Counted from the stretch's first letter, positions 47,404 to 63,498 are shown. The stretch is DNA of 64,000 nucleotides from a virus (IMGVR_UViG_3300017911_002159:32001-96000); one strand, 5' to 3'. Notes: generated from the sequence alone by a model not told the origin. Translations and numbers: made by a program.

Positions 47404-47814
47404 ATGTTTGGCTTGATACAGAGGATAGGATTCCTCGCTTTTTTATTAGTCCCTTCTTTTGCTCAGGCCGAAGAGATTCAGCCTGAGTTTTTTATTCATG
47501 ACTTAACAAATGCTACAGCATTGTTTAAAGCAGCAGACATGGGATGTGGAACCGTAGATGAAGATGTTTACAAATTTTTAATCAGAGGTTCTGCTGACTA
47601 TCTGATGGAGACTGGTGCCTCAAGAATTCTTGCTGCACAGATGTTAAATGCTTTGGCAATTGAAATTGTTCAAAGTACAGAAAGATACATTAATTATCAC
47701 GGTTGTGATAAATTTAACTCAGTTATGTTTGAGTTCAAAGACGATTACAAGATACTTAATGACGTTTTTGAAATATATAACATTTCGTTTGACAGTGAAG
47801 AAATACAGTTGTAA
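47404..47814 (+). CDS. Exported protein with a signal peptide
   Basis: Hydrophobic N-terminus ending in AQA. Confidence 0.55.
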   Translation: MFGLIQRIGFLAFLLVPSFAQAEEIQPEFFIHDLTNATALFKAADMGCGTVDEDVYKFLIRGSADYLMETGASRILAAQMLNALAIEIVQSTERYINYHGCDKFNSVMFEFKDDYKILNDVFEIYNISFDSEEIQL

Positions 47815-47821
47815 ATAAATA

Positions 47822-48076
47822 GTTGTGTTCTTGTTGAGGATTCGACAAAAGCTATGCAGGACAGGAGTGCAAATCTCCTCACCTCCACCACAAGCATATT
47901 AAGGTATGTTTCTGATGGGGGTGACTTAGGATCGACTGGTAGTAAGTAGCTTATCTGAGAGAGCAAAAAAAATAGTTGCTAATAACTATGACAAACCTTC
48001 CGTAGCTCTTGCAGCATAACGGGTTGGGCTTGATTCGGGGAGCCTAGAAACAGAAGGGGGATAACTTATCCCCCAC
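47822..48076 (+). ncRNA. ssrA: Circularly permuted (two-piece) tmRNA
   Basis: The acceptor piece has a T-arm AGGAG/TGCAAAT/CTCCT and ends CACCTCC-A-CCA (47890). A 26-nt spacer follows. The coding piece starts GGGGGTG (47917), giving G3-U70. Tag reading frame 47978-48019 = ANNYDKPSVALAA*. Outer boundaries are approximate. Confidence 0.9.
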
Positions 48077-50652: not shown

Positions 50653-51029
50653 ATGATGAACAAGCAATAAAGTCAATCAAACTCACTTCTGGTGAGGAGA
50701 TTGTCGGTGTTGTGCATGAGATTTCTGAGTCTTATGTAGAAGTCCAAAGTCCTTTTGTTGTTAGTAAGACAATGGGATCTTCCTTTATGTTGTTGCCTTG
50801 GATGATTACGTCTGAAATCAATCAGATTCACTCCATCAACATATTAAATGTATCTTCTGTAGCTGAATCATCTTCCGATTTTCTTAGAGCTTACATAAAA
50901 GTTATTAAAGAAAATGCAGAAGACGAAGACCAAGAATTCGAGGTCAAGTCTTTAGATGAGTTTGATGAAGAAATGGAAGAAGAAGAGGAGGAGTTAGATA
51001 TGACTCCTCCTGATACTACCGTCCACTAG
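50649..51029 (+). CDS. Conserved T4-like Sm-fold-type protein with an acidic tail
   Basis: IKL.SGEEI; L.PW; acidic C-terminus ending in VH. Confidence 0.6.
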   Translation: MNDEQAIKSIKLTSGEEIVGVVHEISESYVEVQSPFVVSKTMGSSFMLLPWMITSEINQIHSINILNVSSVAESSSDFLRAYIKVIKENAEDEDQEFEVKSLDEFDEEMEEEEEELDMTPPDTTVH

Positions 51030-51373
51030 TATCTAACACGGCCTAGTGCATCGAATCCTAAACGTGGCAGACTATAAGAAAATTTCGGTGCAGGAATATC
51101 TGCTCTAGTAAGTGGTTTGCCCATATTAGAGAATGCTCTCACACCCGGAGAAATTTCAGGATACTGTCTTGCTGGCTGTGCAGGTTTGAAGGCAGCATTT
51201 CTTGGAGGATTTGGACCAGACAGCCCACTTCCGATTTTAGGATGACTTGCACCAGTAATATCATCAGGAGTGAATCCCGGAGGCAGTTCTTCTTCTGCCA
51301 TAACTGCTGGTCTTAAAGCAGCAAGACCAAATTCCATCAAAGTCTCTTTTCCTAAAAGAAGTTTTTTACTCAT
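51026..51373 (-). CDS. Orphan Pro-rich late protein
   Basis: Coupled member of the minus-strand operon; ..KETLME. Confidence 0.55.
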   Translation of the reverse strand: MSKKLLLGKETLMEFGLAALRPAVMAEEELPPGFTPDDITGASHPKIGSGLSGPNPPRNAAFKPAQPARQYPEISPGVRAFSNMGKPLTRADIPAPKFSYSLPRLGFDALGRVRY

Positions 51374-51834
51374 GCTTCGCCAATCCTTGTTTTTGCTACA
51401 CTAACTCCGGAAAGTGGTTTATTGCTTGCTACAGCTAAACCTAATCCTCGTCCCTTATTTATTCCGATTTGAAGTCTGTTAAGAATATTTGATTGCAGAC
51501 TTCTTCTTTCGTTGTTTCTCATTTGCCGACCAACGGTATCCACAAGACTTTTTTCGGGATCTAACGTAGTATTTCTAGATCTGTTCAAAACAGAAGCAAC
51601 AGGACCAACCAGAGCTAAAGATGCTAAACCTGCTGCACCAGTTGCTAAAAGACCCTTGTTGCTTTTAGCTAAACCCAAAAGACCGCCTTGTCTTGTGTTA
51701 GGTCCGTAGTTGTAACCAGAAGCTTGTCTTGCCACGTCAACCGGAGGAGTGTTGATGACAGGCTTACCCATAATCATGTTTGTTACAGGGTTTTCGTTTA
51801 GAACTTCTTCTTTAAGCTGCTGGTATGTTTTCAT
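51370..51834 (-). CDS. Putative internal head protein
   Basis: MKTYQQLKEEVLNE resembles the T4 internal-protein capsid-targeting sequence; hydrophobic segment. Confidence 0.6.
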   Translation of the reverse strand: MKTYQQLKEEVLNENPVTNMIMGKPVINTPPVDVARQASGYNYGPNTRQGGLLGLAKSNKGLLATGAAGLASLALVGPVASVLNRSRNTTLDPEKSLVDTVGRQMRNNERRSLQSNILNRLQIGINKGRGLGLAVASNKPLSGVSVAKTRIGEA

Positions 51835-52556
51835 TAGAGAACATCCTTATACAATCTCTCAAACTCTTCATCGGTGAGTCTGTTACGAATAGCTGAAATA
51901 TTTACATTTTCATCTTCGATAGCATCTAACAGAATAGTACGAGCCATCGTTTCATCACCAGCATCTAAGGCATCACCAATCTCATCAGCAATCCTTCTAT
52001 TTCTAAGAACTTTCATAATTCTTGGTGTTGCTCTTCTCATAGCTTCGACAGAACCAGCAAAAACAGCTATAAGAATTAATACAATAGTTACATTTACTTT
52101 CAGCCAAGCCTGTTGTCCTTCCGGTAAAGGCAAACTTTCAATTGCTTTATCATATGCACCTTTTAATGCACTTAATGCACCTAAGACAGCAGAAAATGCT
52201 AAAGAAAAAGCAGTTGCTGCTGCAGTAGCCCTAGCTCTAGCAAACTTCCAAACCTCAGCAACAAGTGATACTAATCCTCCCCCTGCTAAGGCTAATAATC
52301 CTTTTTGAGTAAGGTCTATGCCAATTCTACCCTGTAGACGTGAGCCACGGGGTGTTAACGAACCGGGTTTGTCTGCTTTGTAAGGCTCATTTCTTGTATA
52401 AGATAGTTTTCTTTTATCAAGAGCACTTAAAACATTACCTCTAGGAGGTCTTCCTTTAAATCCTGTTATATATGCACGGGGAGATTGGAAGGCAAGATTT
52501 CTTGGAGGTCTTCTTTGCTCCATCATTTCTCTTAACACATCTTTTGAGTATGACAT
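51834..52556 (-). CDS. Membrane-type orphan protein (MSYS..LRE family)
   Basis: MSYSKDVLRE; three hydrophobic segments. Confidence 0.6.
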   Translation of the reverse strand: MSYSKDVLREMMEQRRPPRNLAFQSPRAYITGFKGRPPRGNVLSALDKRKLSYTRNEPYKADKPGSLTPRGSRLQGRIGIDLTQKGLLALAGGGLVSLVAEVWKFARARATAAATAFSLAFSAVLGALSALKGAYDKAIESLPLPEGQQAWLKVNVTIVLILIAVFAGSVEAMRRATPRIMKVLRNRRIADEIGDALDAGDETMARTILLDAIEDENVNISAIRNRLTDEEFERLYKDVL

Positions 52557-53311
52557 CAGTACTGCCCTCTGTTTAATCTATTGGCATTTCTTCTTTTAAT
52601 AGCTTGATAATAGTCATAGTTATATGGTCTTAGGGGGCCAGCTTTATCAAGTATACTTTTTAATCCTTTTAATCCAGTCATAACTAGATTTACAGGACTC
52701 TCTGTTATAGGTCTTGGCTTTGGAATAGGGAAACTGACTGGTACAGTTCTGGTAGGCTTTAGTCTGTCTAATGGGTTCTTATCTGGTCTATTTGATGGAG
52801 CATATACACCAATAGATGGGTCGGGATTGTTTGGATCTGGGCCATCACCGACACCAAAATAGTTTATACCTTGTATAGTTCTAGTAATTGGTTTGGTAGC
52901 AGGAGGATCCATATAGATTTTATCACCGCTTCTATAATACGTTATTGGTCGTGGCTTTACTTTACTAGCAAGATAAGCACCACTAATGCTTGTGCCATCA
53001 CCAATGTCTACTAGATTATCATCATTAAACTGTTGTTCCGAAAGAGTCATTGCACCTAATTTCATTATCTGTTCGTTAAATCTTACAGAGTCCACAAAAT
53101 CATCTGGAGATGCTGTAAATTCAAAATCATTTTTTACGTAGTCGTTAAAGAATCTACCAGCAGAGTCTGCATTAATAAAATCATTGTAAACATCTTCAGG
53201 CACGTTGATGTAAGTGTAGTTTTTGCCAGAACCAGCAAATCTTACATTCATCTTTTTAGTCTTTTTGTTGTACGTGACCTTAGTGATGGCCGAAGAATCG
53301 AGTCTAGGCAT
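52556..53311 (-). CDS. KTSC-domain fusion protein
   Basis: SSAI..V.Y......V.F..G..Y.Y..VP..VY..F..A.S.G.FFN..VK. Confidence 0.75.
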   Translation of the reverse strand: MPRLDSSAITKVTYNKKTKKMNVRFAGSGKNYTYINVPEDVYNDFINADSAGRFFNDYVKNDFEFTASPDDFVDSVRFNEQIMKLGAMTLSEQQFNDDNLVDIGDGTSISGAYLASKVKPRPITYYRSGDKIYMDPPATKPITRTIQGINYFGVGDGPDPNNPDPSIGVYAPSNRPDKNPLDRLKPTRTVPVSFPIPKPRPITESPVNLVMTGLKGLKSILDKAGPLRPYNYDYYQAIKRRNANRLNRGQY

Positions 53312-53790
53312 TAGATAAATCTATTTTTCTTTTTTCTTTTGCCGCCCTCAGAAGGAAGCTTTGTTGTACCAGTGGCAAAATATCTTGCTGTACGACCACC
53401 AAGACCGACACCTTTTCTAATACCGTAACCAGTGCCTTTGATTAGACCATAGGTTAGACCTGCAGTACCGCCAGCAAGACCACCCATCGTGACATAATTT
53501 GGATTTCCTGTTAAAGCTTGAGCACCAAGACCCATTAAACTACCAAGTGCAGCACCGCCAAGAGTACCGGCAGCGGCTCCACCAAATGCACCTAAAGGAG
53601 CTGCTGTAGCACCACCATAGTATCGACCAACATTAAGGCCAATTCGACCAGTTGTTGTTTCTGGTGTGTCCATTTGTTCTGGCGAAACCATTACGTCAGA
53701 TCCAAGTCTTGTAGAAAATGGATTGATAGTGCTGCCCTTTTTCTTTTTCTTTCCTCTAGCTTCTTGAATGGCCATTCTTGAGTAAGACAT
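53311..53790 (-). CDS. Glycine-zipper protein (MSYS..IQE family)
   Basis: GAFGGAAAGTLGGAALGSLMG; basic termini. Confidence 0.65.
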   Translation of the reverse strand: MSYSRMAIQEARGKKKKKGSTINPFSTRLGSDVMVSPEQMDTPETTTGRIGLNVGRYYGGATAAPLGAFGGAAAGTLGGAALGSLMGLGAQALTGNPNYVTMGGLAGGTAGLTYGLIKGTGYGIRKGVGLGGRTARYFATGTTKLPSEGGKRKKKNRFI

Positions 53791-53791
53791 T

Positions 53792-54214
53792 TTAATATCT
53801 CCCGTCTCTTTCTAACTCCGCTGCAATAGCATTAGCATAATCGATATCTGCTGCTCTAGAACCAGCTATAGCAGAGCCAAGTCTTGATCCTGCCGCTGCA
53901 CCAAGCACGCCAAGACCTACCTGTGCCAGACCTGTAACTTTTCCTTTAGTAAAGGCATCTTGACCACCAACACTTGCACCGTATTTGCCGCCAGCCATTA
54001 TACCTAAAGCAGTTCCAGCTAAGGCACCGATACCACGACCAACAAGTCTTCTTCTATCAGACTTTCTTTTTTGGTCTGTTACTTGTGGATCGATATCAAC
54101 AAACTTTCTTTTAAAAGCTACCTGTGGAGCAGAAGATTCATAGACACGATGATGTCTTTGTTGTTTTGTGGGCGAAAAAGCTTCTTTGATAGCTTCATTA
54201 CATGCTTGACACAT
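53792..54214 (-). CDS. Glycine-zipper protein
   Basis: GRGIGALAGTALGIMAG and GLGVLGAAAGSRLG. Confidence 0.65.
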   Translation of the reverse strand: MCQACNEAIKEAFSPTKQQRHHRVYESSAPQVAFKRKFVDIDPQVTDQKRKSDRRRLVGRGIGALAGTALGIMAGGKYGASVGGQDAFTKGKVTGLAQVGLGVLGAAAGSRLGSAIAGSRAADIDYANAIAAELERDGRY

Positions 54215-54235
54215 ATATATCTCCTTGAATTTCTA

Positions 54236-54703
54236 CTATTTAGGTGGATTGGCAGTATTCTGAACGTTTCTTATGGCTTGAGCAGGTGTGCTGATTTTAA
54301 AACGATTCAAACCAGCTTGAATTAAAGCACTTGCATCAGAAGGAGAGAAAGAAGCTCCTTCAACACCTTGCCTAGATGCAGCAAAGTTAGCCAAACCTCT
54401 TGCTTGTTCAGCCCCTGTATAAACCTTAGCAGCACCTAATCTTGCAGGAGAAGACGTTTGGTAAGGCGGCTCTTGAGGTTTCTTACCAAAAAGACCAAAC
54501 AGTTCGTAAAGTCCTTGTTCGATGAGTTGTTCTTTTTTCATTGGAAGTCCTTTATGTTTTGTTGAAGCATATTTTTCGATATCTTTTAGAGTCATAGAAT
54601 CAGCAGCTTTTTTTACGTCTGCTGATACGTCTTTCACTTCACCTCTTTTGTAGGCGAGTACAAGACCAAAAAACTTTTGTTGTTGTTTTGATACTGCTGG
54701 CAT
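54236..54703 (-). CDS. DUF3008-like N-terminus fused to an orphan region
   Basis: MPA.SK.QQ....A.KRGE.....SM....ASTKHKGLP. Confidence 0.65.
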   Translation of the reverse strand: MPAVSKQQQKFFGLVLAYKRGEVKDVSADVKKAADSMTLKDIEKYASTKHKGLPMKKEQLIEQGLYELFGLFGKKPQEPPYQTSSPARLGAAKVYTGAEQARGLANFAASRQGVEGASFSPSDASALIQAGLNRFKISTPAQAIRNVQNTANPPK

Positions 54704-55264
54704 TTAAATTACCTCGAATAAGTTTCTACCGAATGATCTAACAACATCACCGTCTTGAGAGATCATAATTCTTTGCATGTCTCTAAGCTTGGTGTCTGTA
54801 AGGTGTCTTCTTCTCATACCTTGTGCTAAGAAGATATGAACTTCTATTGGATCGTCACCTTCAACTTCTTGAACGGCAACCATTCTGTTTCTGCCTTCAT
54901 GGTTCATGACTTCTGCAGGTTGATCACCCTCTTCATCAACCCTTACGATTAAGAAAGGAGCACCGATAGCTTCTCCGTCCCTTAGTTCGTTAGCAATAGA
55001 GGAAGCAGATCTAGCAAAGAAGTTTCTTCTTTCGGCAAGTTCTAAGAAAACAGATGGTTTCATAAGAGTTCTGACGCCAAGATAATCGACTTCTTGGTTA
55101 TCAGGTACAGCACCCATTCCTCTGACATTATCGATAACGACTTCTTTAAGAGCTTTAAGACCTTCATTCATGATGGCAGCTTTTTTGATGTAAGGAACAC
55201 TTCTTGTTCTAAAGTCTGTGCTACGTCTGCCGTATGGATTGATAGGGTTTCTTTTAAATCTCAT
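54704..55264 (-). CDS. ParB/Srx-like fold candidate
   Basis: P.L.V ... HEGRNRM.A resembles the DGxHR motif. Confidence 0.4.
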   Translation of the reverse strand: MRFKRNPINPYGRRSTDFRTRSVPYIKKAAIMNEGLKALKEVVIDNVRGMGAVPDNQEVDYLGVRTLMKPSVFLELAERRNFFARSASSIANELRDGEAIGAPFLIVRVDEEGDQPAEVMNHEGRNRMVAVQEVEGDDPIEVHIFLAQGMRRRHLTDTKLRDMQRIMISQDGDVVRSFGRNLFEVI

Positions 55265-55266
55265 GC

Positions 55267-55413
55267 TTATCTCTTTCTCATGGTTATGAGTCCGAGTCCT
55301 CTGTTAGGATTACGTGACTTAATAGGAATTCTGAGAGGATTAGGATTAGCAAGAGGATTGGTGACTGCTTCTCTCAGAGCTTTGTAGCCTATTTCCATAA
55401 GTCTTCTGGACAT
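55267..55413 (-). CDS. 48-aa protein below the track cutoff; N-terminus paralogous to 55413-55817
   Basis: MSRRLMEIGYKALREAVTNPLANPNPLRIPIKSRNPNRGLGLITMRKR; coupled TAATG. Confidence 0.65.
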   Translation of the reverse strand: MSRRLMEIGYKALREAVTNPLANPNPLRIPIKSRNPNRGLGLITMRKR

Positions 55414-55817
55414 TATCTTGGTCCTTTTTTTGCATTAGATTTAAAGATGCCTTGAGCAATAAATGGATCTTGTCTCCTTGGGATGTCACCCTCAATATCT
55501 AATTCTCTTCTTGCAGAATCAAACTCATCTTTGTAAACACCCCGCTGACCTTGAAGTTCACTATATGCATTTTGCCTCATTCTTTCATATGCTTGATTTT
55601 CTAATTTGGGGGGAAAATTGTAGTCAGGATACTTTTTAGTCAGGTCTGCAGCGGGTTTAGTAACACTTTTAACCACTTCATCCCCCGGATTACCTGTCAT
55701 AAAAGTATTCATATTACGGGCAAATCCATCTTTTGACACAGCAGTAGGAGATCTCATGTGCATTTGCTCTCTTTCTCTCAGAGCTTTGTATCCCATTTCC
55801 ATCAATTCTCTAGACAT
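55413..55817 (-). CDS. Orphan late protein
   Basis: MSRELMEMGYKALRE; first gene after the late promoter. Confidence 0.6.
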   Translation of the reverse strand: MSRELMEMGYKALREREQMHMRSPTAVSKDGFARNMNTFMTGNPGDEVVKSVTKPAADLTKKYPDYNFPPKLENQAYERMRQNAYSELQGQRGVYKDEFDSARRELDIEGDIPRRQDPFIAQGIFKSNAKKGPR

Positions 55818-56871: not shown

Positions 56872-56900
56872 AGTATACAAGCTCCTACAAGACATGTCAA
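56872..56900 (-). promoter_or_regulatory. Sigma70-type early promoter (leftward)
   Basis: TTGACA-17-TATACT. Confidence 0.8.
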
Positions 56901-57056
56901 GAATAAAACAATAAACACCTCGACAGTCCCTTAAACCCCCGTCAGCAAGGCTTAGAAGGCGTTTAAACAGGGTACAGTGTCAGGTAGTGTTACAATTAAA
57001 AAAACGTTTCTTTTTAAAACAAGAAAACGAAAGGATGTACTATCTTTGAATTAGAA

Positions 57057-57866
57057 TGGTACACCTGTACTATAGAATGATAACATCTATAGTCAGTGCT
57101 TAAGAGAAATGTCTTTGTAAGTTCAGCCCGCAAAATATTTCAAATTTTATTTAATATTTACGTTGAGCTATGCACTCAGTGCATGTCAATAGTTATTTTT
57201 GCATAGCATGCTAAGTTTGCATAGCTGCCATAACAATAAAGTGGCTTATCAAATGATTCCATATATGAGAGACTATAAGAGTAAGTTAACCGATGATATT
57301 GGAGTTCATCATGTCTTATACGTTTAGCATTCTCAAATCTGACGATTCTTTTTGCAGCGTCACGATTCCCTCAAATTCGAGACAATATGCAGAAGAAATT
57401 TTTGCTGAGACTGTCTCAAATCCGAAATTTAAATCGGAACAATTTGATACAAAGTTTACGAGACTTGCTGGTGAAAATCTAAAATCCGAAGAATACCGAG
57501 ACGCCATTGGTAAAGCTTGGGTCATGACTCGGAAGCAGCAGGACGAAATCGATCAAATTTTAGATGAAGATTGGGATGTGGATCCTATGTGTCCAAGCAA
57601 TTTTTACTAAAATTTTAGCCGGGGAGCTTCGGCTCCCCACTATTTAAAATTTGATCTACCCGGACGATGGGGGCAGCACTCGGATTTTTTTCCGCAGTGT
57701 TAGAGTCAGAAACCAAACCTGCCATATTTTTAAGTACCCCAAATTTTAGACAAATATATTCAGTATTGTATGGATAGGGTATGATAGATAAAGTTTAAAA
57801 CAAGTCTTATGGTACAAGTGTACTATACATAAAATTTTAGACAATGTTTAGAGTACAATTGTACCA
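57057..57866. repeat. Three palindromic operator-like sites with a GTACAnnTGTAC core
   Basis: Cores at 57059-57070, 57812-57823 and 57853-57864. Confidence 0.7.
57311..57610 (+). CDS. Hypothetical protein
   Basis: GGAG RBS; followed by a GGGGAGC-TTCG-GCTCCCC hairpin. Confidence 0.55.
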   Translation: MSYTFSILKSDDSFCSVTIPSNSRQYAEEIFAETVSNPKFKSEQFDTKFTRLAGENLKSEEYRDAIGKAWVMTRKQQDEIDQILDEDWDVDPMCPSNFY

Positions 57867-58018
57867 TGTACAACTATGTCTGTATTGCATACCAGTCATG
57901 CATAAGGGGGGGATGCAAATTAGATTTTGTGGCATGGGGTTTGCATGCTAGAATTATGCCCCAAATAAAAATTTCGATTTTTACCTTAATTGAAAACTCC
58001 GCCCAAAAAAACAAAAAT

Positions 58019-58160
58019 AAATTTTAGAGAAATACCTTTTTGATTTAGTTTAACTTCCCTAGGCAAAAAATGCGGCAGTATAAAATTTTAGAAAAAACCC
58101 TTTTTAAATTATCTTAACTTCCCTAGACCCAAAAAATCGGGCCGCTAAAATTTTAGGTTT
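58019..58160 (+). repeat. ~64-65-bp imperfect tandem repeat (2.2 copies)
   Basis: AAATTTTAG at 58019, 58083 and 58148; TTAACTTCCCTAG in the first two copies. Confidence 0.75.
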
Positions 58161-58370
58161 TACCCTCGACATTCCAAAAATGCATGGCAGATATGCAGGG
58201 GCAAAAATGTTCTTGCAACATGTCTTATCTTGTGGCACTATAGGACCATGAAAAGCGAGAACAGCAACGGAAACGGAAGCGCTTTCTTTCTTGTTCTTAT
58301 GCGTGGCAAGCAGTCACCATATAGAGAAAGACAAGCAAACGGATTTTCTAAAATTGTTTTCGATTTTCTA

Positions 58371-58399
58371 TTGACTTCAAAAATGCTTTGGTTTAATAT
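58371..58399 (+). promoter_or_regulatory. Early sigma70 promoter
   Basis: TTGACT-17-TAATAT. Confidence 0.65.
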
Positions 58400-58458
58400 C
58401 AGGGCAAGCTTAGGAAAGCGGCAACGTTTCGGCCTAGGCAAGCGGAAGAAAAAAAGAC

Positions 58459-58487
58459 TTGACTTCAAATATGGTTTAGTTTAGTAT
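58459..58487 (+). promoter_or_regulatory. Early sigma70 promoter upstream of the structured RNA
   Basis: TTGACT-17-TAGTAT; the spacer resembles those of the 58371 and 59189 promoters. Confidence 0.65.
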
Positions 58488-58494
58488 CTTCCTA

Positions 58495-58775
58495 CAGTAA
58501 GCGGCAGGTGCACACCTGTTTTACAAAAGCGTGTTTTGCAACGTAATGGATTTTGTGTAGTGTGCAAATAGATTCCTTAGGGATGCACAAAATCGGGCTT
58601 CTAGTAGTGGGATGGCAACCATGAAAGAATGCTCAAACCGCCGTGGCCGGGTAAATTGTCAGAGGGCTGAAGAACGTGAAGGTGGGCAGTCAGAATCCCT
58701 AAGGATCGGTAAAAAATCTTCAAGCTTTGCTTGAACCGGTTTGTTGCGGGGCTTCTCACTACTGTCCCGCAACCA
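58495..58775 (+). ncRNA. Candidate large structured ncRNA with two long-range loop pairings
   Basis: No sense ORF of 60 aa or more. GC-richer than its flanks, with several stems and two 10-bp loop complementarities (see findings). Confidence 0.6.
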
Positions 58776-58914
58776 TGACCCCTTGTGTTGTTTTTGGCGA
58801 TAGCGAAAACTTTGTATCAAATTTGATCTTCTCCTCCCATATAATGTAATTTGGTACGACTCCAAACTGTTTTCGTTATCACCTAAACCAACACTAGATA
58901 AAGGTTTAGAAAAA

Positions 58915-59196
58915 ATGACTGAGTTGAACGAATACGGTTACCCGCTGCATGACTTGTCTGTCAGCCTTGAAATGCAACGATGCATCAACAGATTGTTTGC
59001 TGCACTGAATGACGTGAATTCAGGGGATCGACTCGAATATGCTGTTGCACTGAAGCTTGACCGATATGGTGACGCACTTCGTGAAATTCGACGTGCTGAA
59101 GATAATGTAAAATACTTTCGGCAGATTGTTGAGGCCAAAATCAAAAACACTGAACAACTGCAACTTGACCGTGAACGTGAAAAAGTTGTTGACTAA
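58915..59196 (+). CDS. Hypothetical early protein
   Basis: ORF with AAGG RBS. Confidence 0.55.
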   Translation: MTELNEYGYPLHDLSVSLEMQRCINRLFAALNDVNSGDRLEYAVALKLDRYGDALREIRRAEDNVKYFRQIVEAKIKNTEQLQLDREREKVVD

Positions 59197-59217
59197 CGAA
59201 ATATGGTTTGGTAAGAT
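59189..59217 (+). promoter_or_regulatory. Early sigma70 promoter
   Basis: TTGACT-17-TAAGAT with an extended TG. Confidence 0.7.
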
Positions 59218-59240
59218 AAGTTATCAAATGAGGTGATGAA

Positions 59241-59423
59241 ATGACTGATCAAATCGACAACACTTCCCGACTCAAGCATATCGACGAATTGCTTGATCAC
59301 CTTGACGAACAAATTCTAAATCTGGACTTGCCCAAATACATGAAGCGCCGTCTTAGCGGTCAAGTCTATGCACTCTATAACAAGCTTGAACAAGCTGTTG
59401 ATGACTTCACTCCAATGCACTGA
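59241..59423 (+). CDS. Hypothetical early protein
   Basis: GAGGTG RBS. Confidence 0.6.
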   Translation: MTDQIDNTSRLKHIDELLDHLDEQILNLDLPKYMKRRLSGQVYALYNKLEQAVDDFTPMH

Positions 59424-59429
59424 GGTGAA

Positions 59430-59714
59430 ATGATGTACTCTTTACAAAAAGGTTCTGAAGGATACGTAGCCGCCTACGCTATCAATGTAAAACGTCTTAA
59501 GAATTCATGGCACGGCAATCCACAGTTTGAGATTGGTTTTGCATTCAAGAAAGATGCAACACTTTCAAAATTTACTGCAAAGACAGAAGCAAATTCAATG
59601 CTTGCTTACAAAATCTGTCCCCATTGGACTGAGGGCAAGCAATATGCCTTAACACTGACTAAGCCACGCAAAAACCTTTACATCAAAGAAATGACTGAGG
59701 TGCAAAATGTTTAA
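59430..59714 (+). CDS. Hypothetical early protein
   Basis: GAGGTG RBS; RL.NS..GNP.F motif. Confidence 0.6.
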   Translation: MMYSLQKGSEGYVAAYAINVKRLKNSWHGNPQFEIGFAFKKDATLSKFTAKTEANSMLAYKICPHWTEGKQYALTLTKPRKNLYIKEMTEVQNV

Positions 59715-60959: not shown

Positions 60960-61355
60960 ATGGGTACTCGTTCTTTTATCGGAATTGAAAACGAAGACAA
61001 CTCAGTAAAATACGTTTACTGCCATTGGGATGGCTATCCTTCCCACAACGGCAAAATTCTAAATGAACACTATACTGACCGAAAGTCAGTCAATAAGCTT
61101 CTTGAAGGCGGCGATATGTCTGTACTAAAAGAAGATATTACTAATGTTGAATACTATAACCAAATGAGGGGACAGGATCCAGACAATGATGCCGCAATTG
61201 TGGATAACATGGAAGTTTTTCTGGAAGACATAAAAAATTCTTGGTGTGAATGGGTTTACATCCTGAATAAAGATAATAAGTGGATGGTCTCATCTGATTC
61301 AGACTGGTCAGACATGAAACCACTGAATGAAGTTTTGAGTGAAGATGACTCTTGA
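60960..61355 (+). CDS. Conserved phage hypothetical protein
   Basis: MGTRS.I...YCHWDGYP...G..L..HY motif. Confidence 0.65.
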   Translation: MGTRSFIGIENEDNSVKYVYCHWDGYPSHNGKILNEHYTDRKSVNKLLEGGDMSVLKEDITNVEYYNQMRGQDPDNDAAIVDNMEVFLEDIKNSWCEWVYILNKDNKWMVSSDSDWSDMKPLNEVLSEDDS

Positions 61356-61393: not shown

Positions 61394-61618
61394 ATGAATA
61401 TGAATGAAAGTGAATATCCAATATCCTTTGGACAGAAGATGGATGCAGTCTTAGCAACCATGATTCTTGAAGGTTCCTATGATGAAGCTACTGAAGATGA
61501 TCACGTGACTTCTCTTCAATATCTTATTGATACTGGAGTTGTTTGGCATCTTCAGGGTTCTTATCAACGAATGGCGCAGCATGCCATTGAAAATGGCATT
61601 TGCTCTAAATCTAACTAA
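61394..61618 (+). CDS. Conserved hypothetical protein
   Basis: Q.LIDTG..W.LQG.Y.R.A...I..G.C. Confidence 0.6.
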   Translation: MNMNESEYPISFGQKMDAVLATMILEGSYDEATEDDHVTSLQYLIDTGVVWHLQGSYQRMAQHAIENGICSKSN

Positions 61619-61624
61619 AACACC

Positions 61625-61654
61625 TTGACTAAGACAAACATGTTGTGATATTGT
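61625..61654 (+). promoter_or_regulatory. Early sigma70 promoter
   Basis: TTGACT-18-TATTGT with an extended TG. Confidence 0.55.
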
Positions 61655-62799: not shown

Positions 62800-63069
62800 A
62801 TGATTATGCTTAACAAAGATGTTTACGACTACATCAAAAGTGCTGACAACGAAACTCTCAATGCAATCATTACACAAATCAATCGACGGCGTAGTGCTCT
62901 TCAAGAAGAGGCCACGGATAACTTTGTCGTAGGTCAGGCTGTAGAGTTCACTCGTAAAGATGGTGATATTGTTCGGGGTTCTATCCAGAAGATCAACCGT
63001 AAGACAATCCATGTAAAGACTGACTTTGTGACGTGGAAAGTATCGCCTAGCCTTCTTCGTGCAGCATGA
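62800..63069 (+). CDS. Small SH3/KOW-like protein
   Basis: F.VGQ.V.F....G.I.KINRK.I.V....W.VSPSLL. Confidence 0.6.
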   Translation: MIMLNKDVYDYIKSADNETLNAIITQINRRRSALQEEATDNFVVGQAVEFTRKDGDIVRGSIQKINRKTIHVKTDFVTWKVSPSLLRAA

Positions 63070-63296
63070 TGAAATCAATTAATCTTGATACATCATTTGA
63101 CGATGGTTTTTGTATCAAAGAAGAAATAGCTGTACTTGCCAGAATTTACATTCACGCAGCCTTAGACAAGGCTGATGGCAACAAGACAAAAGCTGCAAAG
63201 CTTTTGGGTCTTCCGTCATATCAAACACTGAACAACTGGATGGAAAAATACAATGTACTATGCCCAAATTCATATGAAGTCAGATCATCAAAGTAA
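63066..63296 (+). CDS. Stand-alone Fis-type HTH protein
   Basis: AL..ADGNKTKAAKLLGL.SYQTL.NW. Confidence 0.75.
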   Translation: MMKSINLDTSFDDGFCIKEEIAVLARIYIHAALDKADGNKTKAAKLLGLPSYQTLNNWMEKYNVLCPNSYEVRSSK

Positions 63297-63498
63297 GTAT
63301 TACCTAACCCCTATCTATAAGACGGTTAAGGAAACGATGAACTACTACTATAACAGACTTCGGCCAACTTTCTATGAAGATGTTTCTAAAATATATTTGT
63401 TCAAAATGAAACGTAGCCGTGGTCGGTACGGTCAGGTCATAGGTAAAGCACACAGTACACGGGATGCAGACTTTAAAATCTTGGAGAAATGGATGTGA
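63253..63498 (+). CDS. Hypothetical basic protein
   Basis: ORF within the early operon. Confidence 0.4.
   Translation: MYYAQIHMKSDHQSKYYLTPIYKTVKETMNYYYNRLRPTFYEDVSKIYLFKMKRSRGRYGQVIGKAHSTRDADFKILEKWM

Follow-up and report, generated by a model that had tools for sequence, protein, structure and literature searches.

The element described here lies in a 119-kb IMG/VR viral contig with a GC content of 38%, of which a stretch of 64 kb, referred to as the window, was analysed. The virus is a T4-like myovirus, encoding a tail sheath, a portal, a gp23-type major head protein, a terminase, a gp43-type polymerase and a gp46-like nuclease, and the closest cultured counterparts of its major head protein (65–71% identical) belong to a Stenotrophomonas phage, OM43 Methylophilales phages and cyanophages. 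Near-identical DNA was found in metagenomes of seawater, estuary, lagoon and salt marsh from 14 studies. The element sits where a minus-strand gene cluster (51026–55817) gives way to small plus-strand ORFs, and a 1.3-kb ORF-poor stretch ends at it. The contig carries four tRNA genes, all distant from the element, and ARAGORN reported no tRNA or tmRNA in the window. With Rfam 15 at gathering thresholds, the only match in the whole window was a circularly permuted (two-piece) tmRNA at 47785–48066 on the plus strand (tmRNA_permuted, 92.1 bits; alpha_tmRNA, 62 bits), which ARAGORN had missed; a phage-borne tmRNA of alphaproteobacterial type may be a hint to the host.

The surrounding DNA has features of its own. 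Between 57607 and 58156, the gene-poor stretch carries at least four copies of (C/A)TAAAATTTTAG together with further AAATTTTAG variants, and a tandem repeat of 64 nt (58019–58070 and 58083–58134, 81% identical) that includes TTAACTTCCCTAG; compared with L089, a 13-kb relative, 57607–58156 shows 70–87% identity, which is below the conservation of the leader. These repeats could represent an origin, phage-specific promoters or an array to which a regulator binds. There is also an inverted repeat at 57809–57867, with 19-nt arms that are 89% complementary around a 21-nt gap (ATGGTACAAGTGTACTATA/TAGAGTACAATTGTACCAT) and a third copy similar to these arms at 57056–57074, and a leftward near-consensus promoter (TTGACA-17-TATACT, 11/12 matches) lies at 56872–56900 on the minus strand. 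The early region displays cassette-like mosaicism, in that whole small ORFs of the window are absent or replaced in L089; the segments 57250–57600, 59250–59650, 60990–61250, 61400–61650 and 63030–63300 are mosaic, with flanking blocks 93–100% identical. Other phage blocks are also 95–100% identical between relatives, which indicates a mosaic genome.

The features of the element and its borders, numbered by position in the window, are as follows.

58371–58399, plus strand: promoter P1, TTGACT-17-TAATAT, found by promoter scan and kept in relatives
58408–58439, plus strand: P1-specific leader hairpin GCTTAGG/CCTAGGC, with a pair change in relatives
58459–58487, plus strand: promoter P2, TTGACT-17-TAGTAT, found by promoter scan and kept in relatives
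58501–58706, plus strand: ultra-conserved GC-rich core, diversity 0.015, 9 segregating sites in 206 nt
58503–58520, plus strand: predicted 5′-proximal hairpin followed by UUUU, invariant in 12 sequences
58549–58594, plus strand: hairpin Pa, 11-bp stem (58549–58559/58584–58594) and 24-nt loop, one G·U in the window
58574–58584, plus strand: 5′ arm of the long-range pairing PK1, in the Pa loop, perfect 11-bp complement of 58695–58705
58595–58634, plus strand: predicted hairpin Pb, imperfect stem (58595–58602/58626–58634) with a bulge, and a small inner hairpin
58603–58612, plus strand: 5′ arm of the claimed second pairing PK2, invariant while its partner changes
58634–58640, plus strand: CAAACCG, complement of 58737–58743 and in part of GGUUU at 58904–58908 in the ribosome-binding region
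58695–58705, plus strand: 3′ arm of PK1, complement of 58574–58584
58707–58718, plus strand: variable A-rich single-stranded linker, diversity 0.173, with +1 and −1 indels
58719–58735, plus strand: hairpin Pe, 7 bp, stem invariant, loop TTT, TT or AAA
58743–58773, plus strand: GC-rich hairpin Pf with a CU-rich loop, stem kept, loop variable
58754–58763, plus strand: 3′ arm of the claimed PK2, which is the variable Pf loop, two haplotypes
58786–58893, plus strand: 3′ domain, a long helix and an enclosed hairpin, with compensatory changes
58901–59196, plus strand: 93-aa ORF (start at 58915) with a weak ribosome-binding site, AAAGG; first gene behind the element

P1 is an 87% direct repeat of P2 and is located 88 nt upstream of it. 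An earlier reading of this DNA, made from the window alone (the sequence-only reading), had placed its RNA directly downstream of P2, and both this promoter and all of the strings it quoted were found at the positions given; in most relatives the −10 box of P2 is TAGAAT. With a predicted start site near 58494–58496, the element would measure about 420 nt from P2 and about 510 nt from P1. In the P1-specific hairpin, U58410·G58437 of the window is replaced in relatives by a U-A pair (G58437 to A), a one-sided change which fits the plus strand only. A 35-nt stretch of the P2 promoter core (58449–58485) also has matches, in two runs, on contigs that show no other relationship to it, in one case at 64× depth, indicating that this early-promoter sequence is common to other genomes or places.

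The 93-aa ORF has close relatives with 76–85% amino acid identity in ENA, Logan and Tara assemblies, and none in IMG/VR. It belongs to no Pfam or PHROG family, and an exhaustive protein search for distant homologues returned only its own cluster and coiled-coil noise. Overlapping its stop codon is a third early promoter at 59189 on the plus strand (TTGACT-17-TAAGAT with an extended −10 TG), which, within 59189–59241, serves a 60-aa ORF through a leader of ~17 nt and a strong GAGGTGA ribosome-binding site. As the next early leader is only ~17 nt long, a 420-nt leader is exceptional in this phage.

No terminator-like sites beyond chance were found on the plus strand between 58495 and 58915, and the sole plus-strand terminator-like site there, the weak 7-bp hairpin at 58719–58735 with the tail CCGGTTTGTT, is not above shuffle expectation (3 found, 2.4 expected). 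In addition, the only TATAAT in 58775–58915 is not conserved, reading TACCAT in relatives. The proposal of a discrete RNA of ~280 nt ending at 58775 could not be upheld, since covarying structure runs on to 58893 and neither a convincing terminator nor a conserved promoter occurs before 58915. We consider it likely that the element is transcribed together with the 93-aa ORF as its leader. A 411-nt contig spanning 58546–58943 was present in one of two runs that bear the label metatranscriptomic but carry a flag as probable DNA, and it does not count as evidence of expression. When the minus strand is read, hairpin 58719–58735 is followed by GAUUUUUUAC and has a better intrinsic-terminator shape than any local plus-strand site, and the variable A-run in the linker might also supply the U-tract for a terminator facing in the antisense direction.

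Approximately 20 related metagenomic contigs, 85–94% identical, cover the whole or part of the element. These were retrieved by way of the downstream 93-aa ORF, with the exception of one (L106) that was found with a 20-mer of the core, and contigs from four further runs added independent haplotypes. The set is shallow, at 85–94% identity, and most helices of the core, including PK1, are invariant across it. Diversity, calculated from 12 full-length sequences, was lowest in the core and rose to 0.040 in the 3′ domain (58786–58893), compared with 0.111, 0.061 and 0.203 at the first, second and third codon positions of the adjacent 93-aa ORF. The core also has a GC content of 48%, compared with 38.6% on average in the window and 36% in the non-coding DNA next to it, and its constraint extends to positions that are unpaired in every model. 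In the contigs from other runs, divergence is 2–3% over 58486–58735 and 5–10% beyond. Because the block contains a nearly neutral linker, the low diversity of the core indicates purifying selection and not merely recent exchange; mosaic exchange contributes to the identity, but the variable linker speaks against exchange as the only cause, and a recent sweep or recombination of the block as a whole cannot account for the conservation.

This constraint is not on a protein, as 1-nt indels at 58707–58712, 58726, 58753, 58782 and 58805/58874 shift every ORF of at least 25 aa on both strands. A small protein-coding ORF was considered and rejected, since the 40-aa sense ORFs and the minus-strand ORFs are all broken by 1-nt indels in relatives, in agreement with the earlier view that the segment has no credible sense ORF.

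Folding statistics on the single sequence gave a mixed picture. The 281 nt originally delimited (58495–58775) contain four helices of at least 10 bp, compared with a shuffle mean of 0.38, and none of 1000 dinucleotide shuffles reached four; four such helices are, however, also present in 0.9% of all 281-nt windows within the 64 kb, some of them in coding DNA, and the MFE (minimum free energy) z-score of the whole segment is approximately −1.0 on either strand. As 281-nt windows of this kind occur elsewhere in the 64 kb and z is near −1, the single sequence is suggestive of structure and no proof of it. We therefore relied on comparison, counting pairs for the helices of the earlier model and those further downstream on an alignment of 17 sequences. 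The covariation score lies above all 500 shuffles and all slid controls, with compensatory changes in Pa and in the two helices of the 3′ domain, Pg and Ph. Unguided RNAalifold folding of the 17 sequences recovered Pa, Pb, Pe, Pf, Pg and Ph and left the PK1 arms free of long helices. A helix 58538–58555/58774–58791, given by RNAalifold with four sequences, was discarded, as it has A·C at 58550/C58779 in most sequences and is dropped by the 17-sequence fold. On the alignment, the comparative data prove some of the proposed helices and disprove PK2 as a conserved feature.

The same changes identify the strand. All intermediate states, at 58550:58593, 58640:58737, 58808:58871, 58803:58876 and 58821:58850, are G·U on the plus strand, and since these occur on the plus strand only they fix the strand and argue for RNA over DNA. 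Together with the score of our covariance model of the 3′ domain, R2, which is higher on the plus strand (129.8 bits compared with 42.8 bits on the minus strand), this bears out the earlier suggestion of a non-coding structured RNA on this strand. We are highly confident that a structured plus-strand RNA is real.

Within the core, the Pa stem exists as described, with 11 bp, and is kept in relatives through A-U, G·U and G-C states. The change is at pair 58550:58593, which is A-U in ten sequences, G-C in two and G·U in two and is never unpaired, with further G·U cases in L127–L129; the support for Pa comes from one column pair, probably one two-step event. Pb was likewise recovered, and six of its seven pairs are invariant, but the stem is bulged and 13 of 15 relatives no longer form its end pair 58602:58626. 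The first loop complementarity, described as 58574–58583 with 58696–58705, is perfect in the window and extends to 11 bp (TCCTTAGGGA(T)/(A)TCCCTAAGGA). All ten of the original pairs are invariant in 14–15 sequences, which leaves PK1 a possible pairing. Pa alone (−84.0 kcal/mol) and PK1 alone (−85.9 kcal/mol) give nearly isoenergetic folds, and if the two form together the PK1 duplex adds −17.1 kcal/mol. As no linker separates the 5′ arm of PK1 from the 3′ arm of Pa, coaxial stacking would be possible. Modelling of this kind makes a single H-type pseudoknot of Pa and PK1 plausible, at slightly under an even chance.

Of the central domain that had been described, CAAACCG/CGGTTTG and the hairpin at 58719–58735 both exist, and pair G58640:C58737 becomes G·U in 6 of 16 sequences, a one-sided change. 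The third helix, ATTGTC/GGCAGT, fared less well: GGCAGT is present at 58685–58690, but most relatives have lost the end pair C58660-G58685 through a G-to-T change. The hairpin at 58743–58773 also exists as described. RNAalifold recovers it, its top six pairs are invariant in the 17 sequences, and L094 is the only one in which the lower three are broken.

The second loop pairing, between 58603–58612 and 58754–58763, presents a different case. In the window the two strands (AGTAGTGGGA/TCTCACTACT) do pair with one G·U, as had been stated, but three central pairs are broken in 13 of 15 relatives with nothing compensating. The Pf loop occurs as TCTCACTACT in the window, L106/L121 and L093, and as ATCTCTTCTCT in all others (12 of the 15 other sequences counted), and the duplex weakens from −13.9 kcal/mol for the window to −3.5 kcal/mol with the majority loop. 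Judged from these haplotypes, PK2 is a property of a minority and not a conserved feature of the RNA, and the double pseudoknot first proposed does not survive the covariation count.

The best comparative support in the element lies in the 3′ domain, which is present in every MFE fold. Its long helix Pg (58786–58810/58869–58893) has 25 positions and three mismatches and encloses the hairpin Ph (58814–58823/58848–58857), a 10-bp stem with a CU-rich loop (58824–58847). In Pg, G58803·U58876 becomes G-C in L091 or A-U in L094, and A58808-U58871 becomes G·U in L094. In addition, two independent paired deletions have each taken one base pair out of both arms, a G-C pair in L091 and a different, A-U pair in the L112 group. 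In Ph, nine sequences have G-C at pair 58821:58850, seven have A-U and one has G·U. The domain ends ~8 nt ahead of AAAGG, the ribosome-binding site of the 93-aa ORF.

Searches for known relatives of this RNA were negative outside the contigs described above. In a scan of 57500–59000 with E up to 10, the best Rfam match was mir-303 on the minus strand at 30.2 bits (threshold 77), and a permissive scan within 58495–58775 gave nothing but one 14-nt fragment; that the sequence-only reading did not recognise it as RNase P, 6S, SRP or a group I/II intron agrees with the lack of any Rfam family at gathering or permissive thresholds. No match at the DNA level turned up among the INPHARED phage records, whether searched for near or for distant similarity, and 86 IMG/VR loci with DUF932 and 206-aa neighbours, among which L085 is not syntenic, contained no similar DNA by blastn or nhmmer. 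Searching IMG/VR with the PK1 pattern and a core 18-mer returned chance matches only, and a JGI metagenome scan with the core 20-mer returned one true relative (L106) and six chance matches. A core 22-mer was unmatched in GTDB genomes, and four GTDB matches to the PK1 pattern were discarded as unrelated Hymenobacter/Bacteroidetes inverted repeats; with no true match in GTDB, there is no sign of a host-derived RNA. Covariance models of the core (R1) and of the 3′ domain (R2) found nothing in 44 related IMG/VR records and no second copy in the window. By eye, no hammerhead-like CUGANGA...GAAA, cobalamin B12-box, T-loop or CsrA-site pattern held up, and a literature search on comparable marine T4-like early RNAs and on T7 leader details found nothing specific. 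Across these collections, the element matches no Rfam family and its homologues are found only within this phage clade.

The reading that we rank first, to which we give about an even chance as a whole, is that of a structured early leader or precursor RNA. Host RNA polymerase would transcribe it from the two tandem σ70-type promoters and continue into the 93-aa ORF. The RNA would have three parts: the near-invariant GC-rich core (58501–58706), in which the Pa loop can pair with 58695–58705; the variable A-rich linker and two hairpins whose loops are free to vary; and the long irregular helix with its enclosed hairpin (58786–58893). The long 3′ helix could serve as a double-strand-specific (RNase III-type) processing and stability element like that of the T7 early leader, and a cut within it would separate the mRNA of the ORF from an upstream RNA of ~300 nt. 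Such processing is suggested tentatively, by analogy; a covarying helix of 25 positions with three mismatches and a 10-bp upper stem is what we found in respect of the helix of a T7/λ-type RNase III site. The near-total constraint on the core, unpaired positions included, suggests a specific and conserved partner, which might be a host protein, an RNA machine or a small ligand, or else it might reflect a catalytic fold of the RNA itself. Against the reading as a whole, an ultra-conserved leader ahead of a fast-evolving ORFan is usually atypical of a classical cis-regulator.

The T7 early leader has tandem host-polymerase promoters (A1, A2 and A3), a non-coding leader and an RNase III site just before gene 0.3. 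Our element resembles it in having tandem strong σ70-type promoters ~90–125 nt apart, a non-coding leader of several hundred nucleotides and a long irregular hairpin ending shortly ahead of the first early gene. However, there is no sequence similarity, and the phage family (here a T4-like myovirus) and the host are different. We know of no report of a 200-nt ultra-conserved core in the T7 leader. According to Dunn and Studier (1973), as cited in PMC6212723, RNase III releases the early RNAs of T7 by cutting long precursors, and the 5′ UTRs, intercistronic regions and non-coding RNAs of E. coli are enriched in sites for this enzyme (PMC6212723).

T4-type phages are likewise a source of non-coding elements made early, among them the T4 stable RNAs C and D and the gene 32 leader. 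RNAs C and D (species 1 and 2 RNAs) are early non-coding RNAs that lie in the tRNA cluster, whereas our element is far from the tRNA genes of its contig. The gene 32 leader has an H-type pseudoknot upstream of the ribosome-binding site which is bound by the gene's own product; this operator is much smaller than our element, and we detected no homology to the T4 elements. Rfam motifs from marine phages and metagenomes (glutamine/glnA, manA, wcaG, PhotoRC, AdoCbl-variant and others) are also conserved structured 5′ leaders, several of them with pseudoknots. However, none matches, with the best scores in 57500–59000 far under gathering thresholds, and the gene downstream of our element is an ORFan and not an auxiliary metabolic gene.

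A constrained core ahead of a gene would also fit a riboswitch-like cis-regulator, in which the core is an aptamer and the downstream hairpins are an expression platform that controls how the 93-aa ORF is translated. Constraint on the core includes its unpaired positions and the linker and platform are more variable, as such a device would have it, and the leader exceeds the one ahead of the next early gene ~25-fold in length. A possible route is competition of the AAACC segments (58635–58639 and 58885–58889) for the GGUUU of the ribosome-binding region. The AAACC segments are complements of the GGUUU segments (58738–58742 and 58904–58908), one of which overlaps with the ribosome-binding site. 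CUAAACC (58883–58889) and GGUUUAG (58904–58910) are perfect complements that form a 7-bp hairpin when 58860–58930 is folded alone, and RNAalifold with 17 sequences pairs 58635–58639 with 58904–58908 instead of 58737–58743. In folding models the AAACC/GGUUU competition could act as a switch, but the alternative pairings are without covariation support and the ribosome-binding site is unpaired in the MFE fold of the full leader. In addition, no known riboswitch class in Rfam matches, and the gene that would be regulated is a fast-evolving ORFan without a metabolic link. We consider this explanation unlikely.

Next in rank, and also unlikely, is a trans-acting early sRNA derived from the leader, in which the CU-rich loops at 58753–58763 and 58824–58847 would base-pair with the purine-rich ribosome-binding sites of mRNAs from host or phage. 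All haplotypes have two hairpin loops rich in C and U (CUUCUCCUCCC, UCUCUUCUC or CUUCUCAC), GAGGTGA sites are used by other genes of this phage, and the tandem strong promoters are typical of abundant stable RNAs, for which they are the cellular layout. On the other hand, conservation within the element is lowest in the loops, there is no terminator to delimit an sRNA, and the invariant core is left unexplained. The loop 58824–58847 of the window contains CUCCUCCC, a likeness to the alphaproteobacterial CcsR/cuckoo sRNAs with their CCUCCUCCC loops, but the motif is lost in L106/L121 and L093, is placed in a single hairpin within a longer helix and not in tandem repeats, and no Rfam model matched, those of cuckoo/CcsR included.

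The model of the sequence-only reading, a discrete RNA of ~280 nt (58495–58775) that is folded by two loop-loop pairings of 10 bp and serves as a scaffold, a decoy or a ribozyme-like RNA, can account for the presence of both pairings in the window, the independent recovery of Pa, Pb and Pf, the extreme conservation of the core and the lack of an Rfam match. It is nevertheless very unlikely, since PK2 is lost in relatives without compensation, 58775 is unmarked as an end and is passed by conserved covarying structure reaching 58893, and no self-cleaving ribozyme family gave a match even with E up to 10.

Least probable of all is a DNA-level element (an origin, protein-binding array or promoter-associated site) or recent recombination with incidental hairpins, for while the element borders the 1.3-kb gene-poor stretch with its AAATTTTAG repeats and 64-nt tandem repeat, other 95–100% identical blocks occur in this mosaic genome, and an interrupted palindrome CCTNAGG is present in the PK1 arms and in the P1 hairpin, the substitutions pass through G·U on the plus strand only (RNA of the other strand would have A·C mismatches), the paired deletions keep the helices in register, the linker within the block is as diverse as synonymous sites, and the GC-rich core is unlike an unwinding element.

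Returning to the structured early leader or precursor RNA, a further and more speculative step, to which we give a rather small chance, is that the core around the Pa/PK1 pseudoknot represents a new class of functional RNA produced in the first minutes of infection, perhaps a riboswitch, a catalytic RNA or a decoy for a conserved host machine (such as RNA polymerase, ribosome or ribonuclease), and that it would be released by cleavage of the 3′ helix.

Beyond the model phages, little has been charted of early leaders and of the non-coding RNAs that phages encode, and here a non-coding core of 200 nt is four times more constant than the second codon positions of the neighbouring gene. The element is a well-supported structured RNA of one narrow clade and a compact candidate for a new RNA family. 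If its partner is a host machine or a metabolite, it would open a new way to study the takeover of cells by marine phages.
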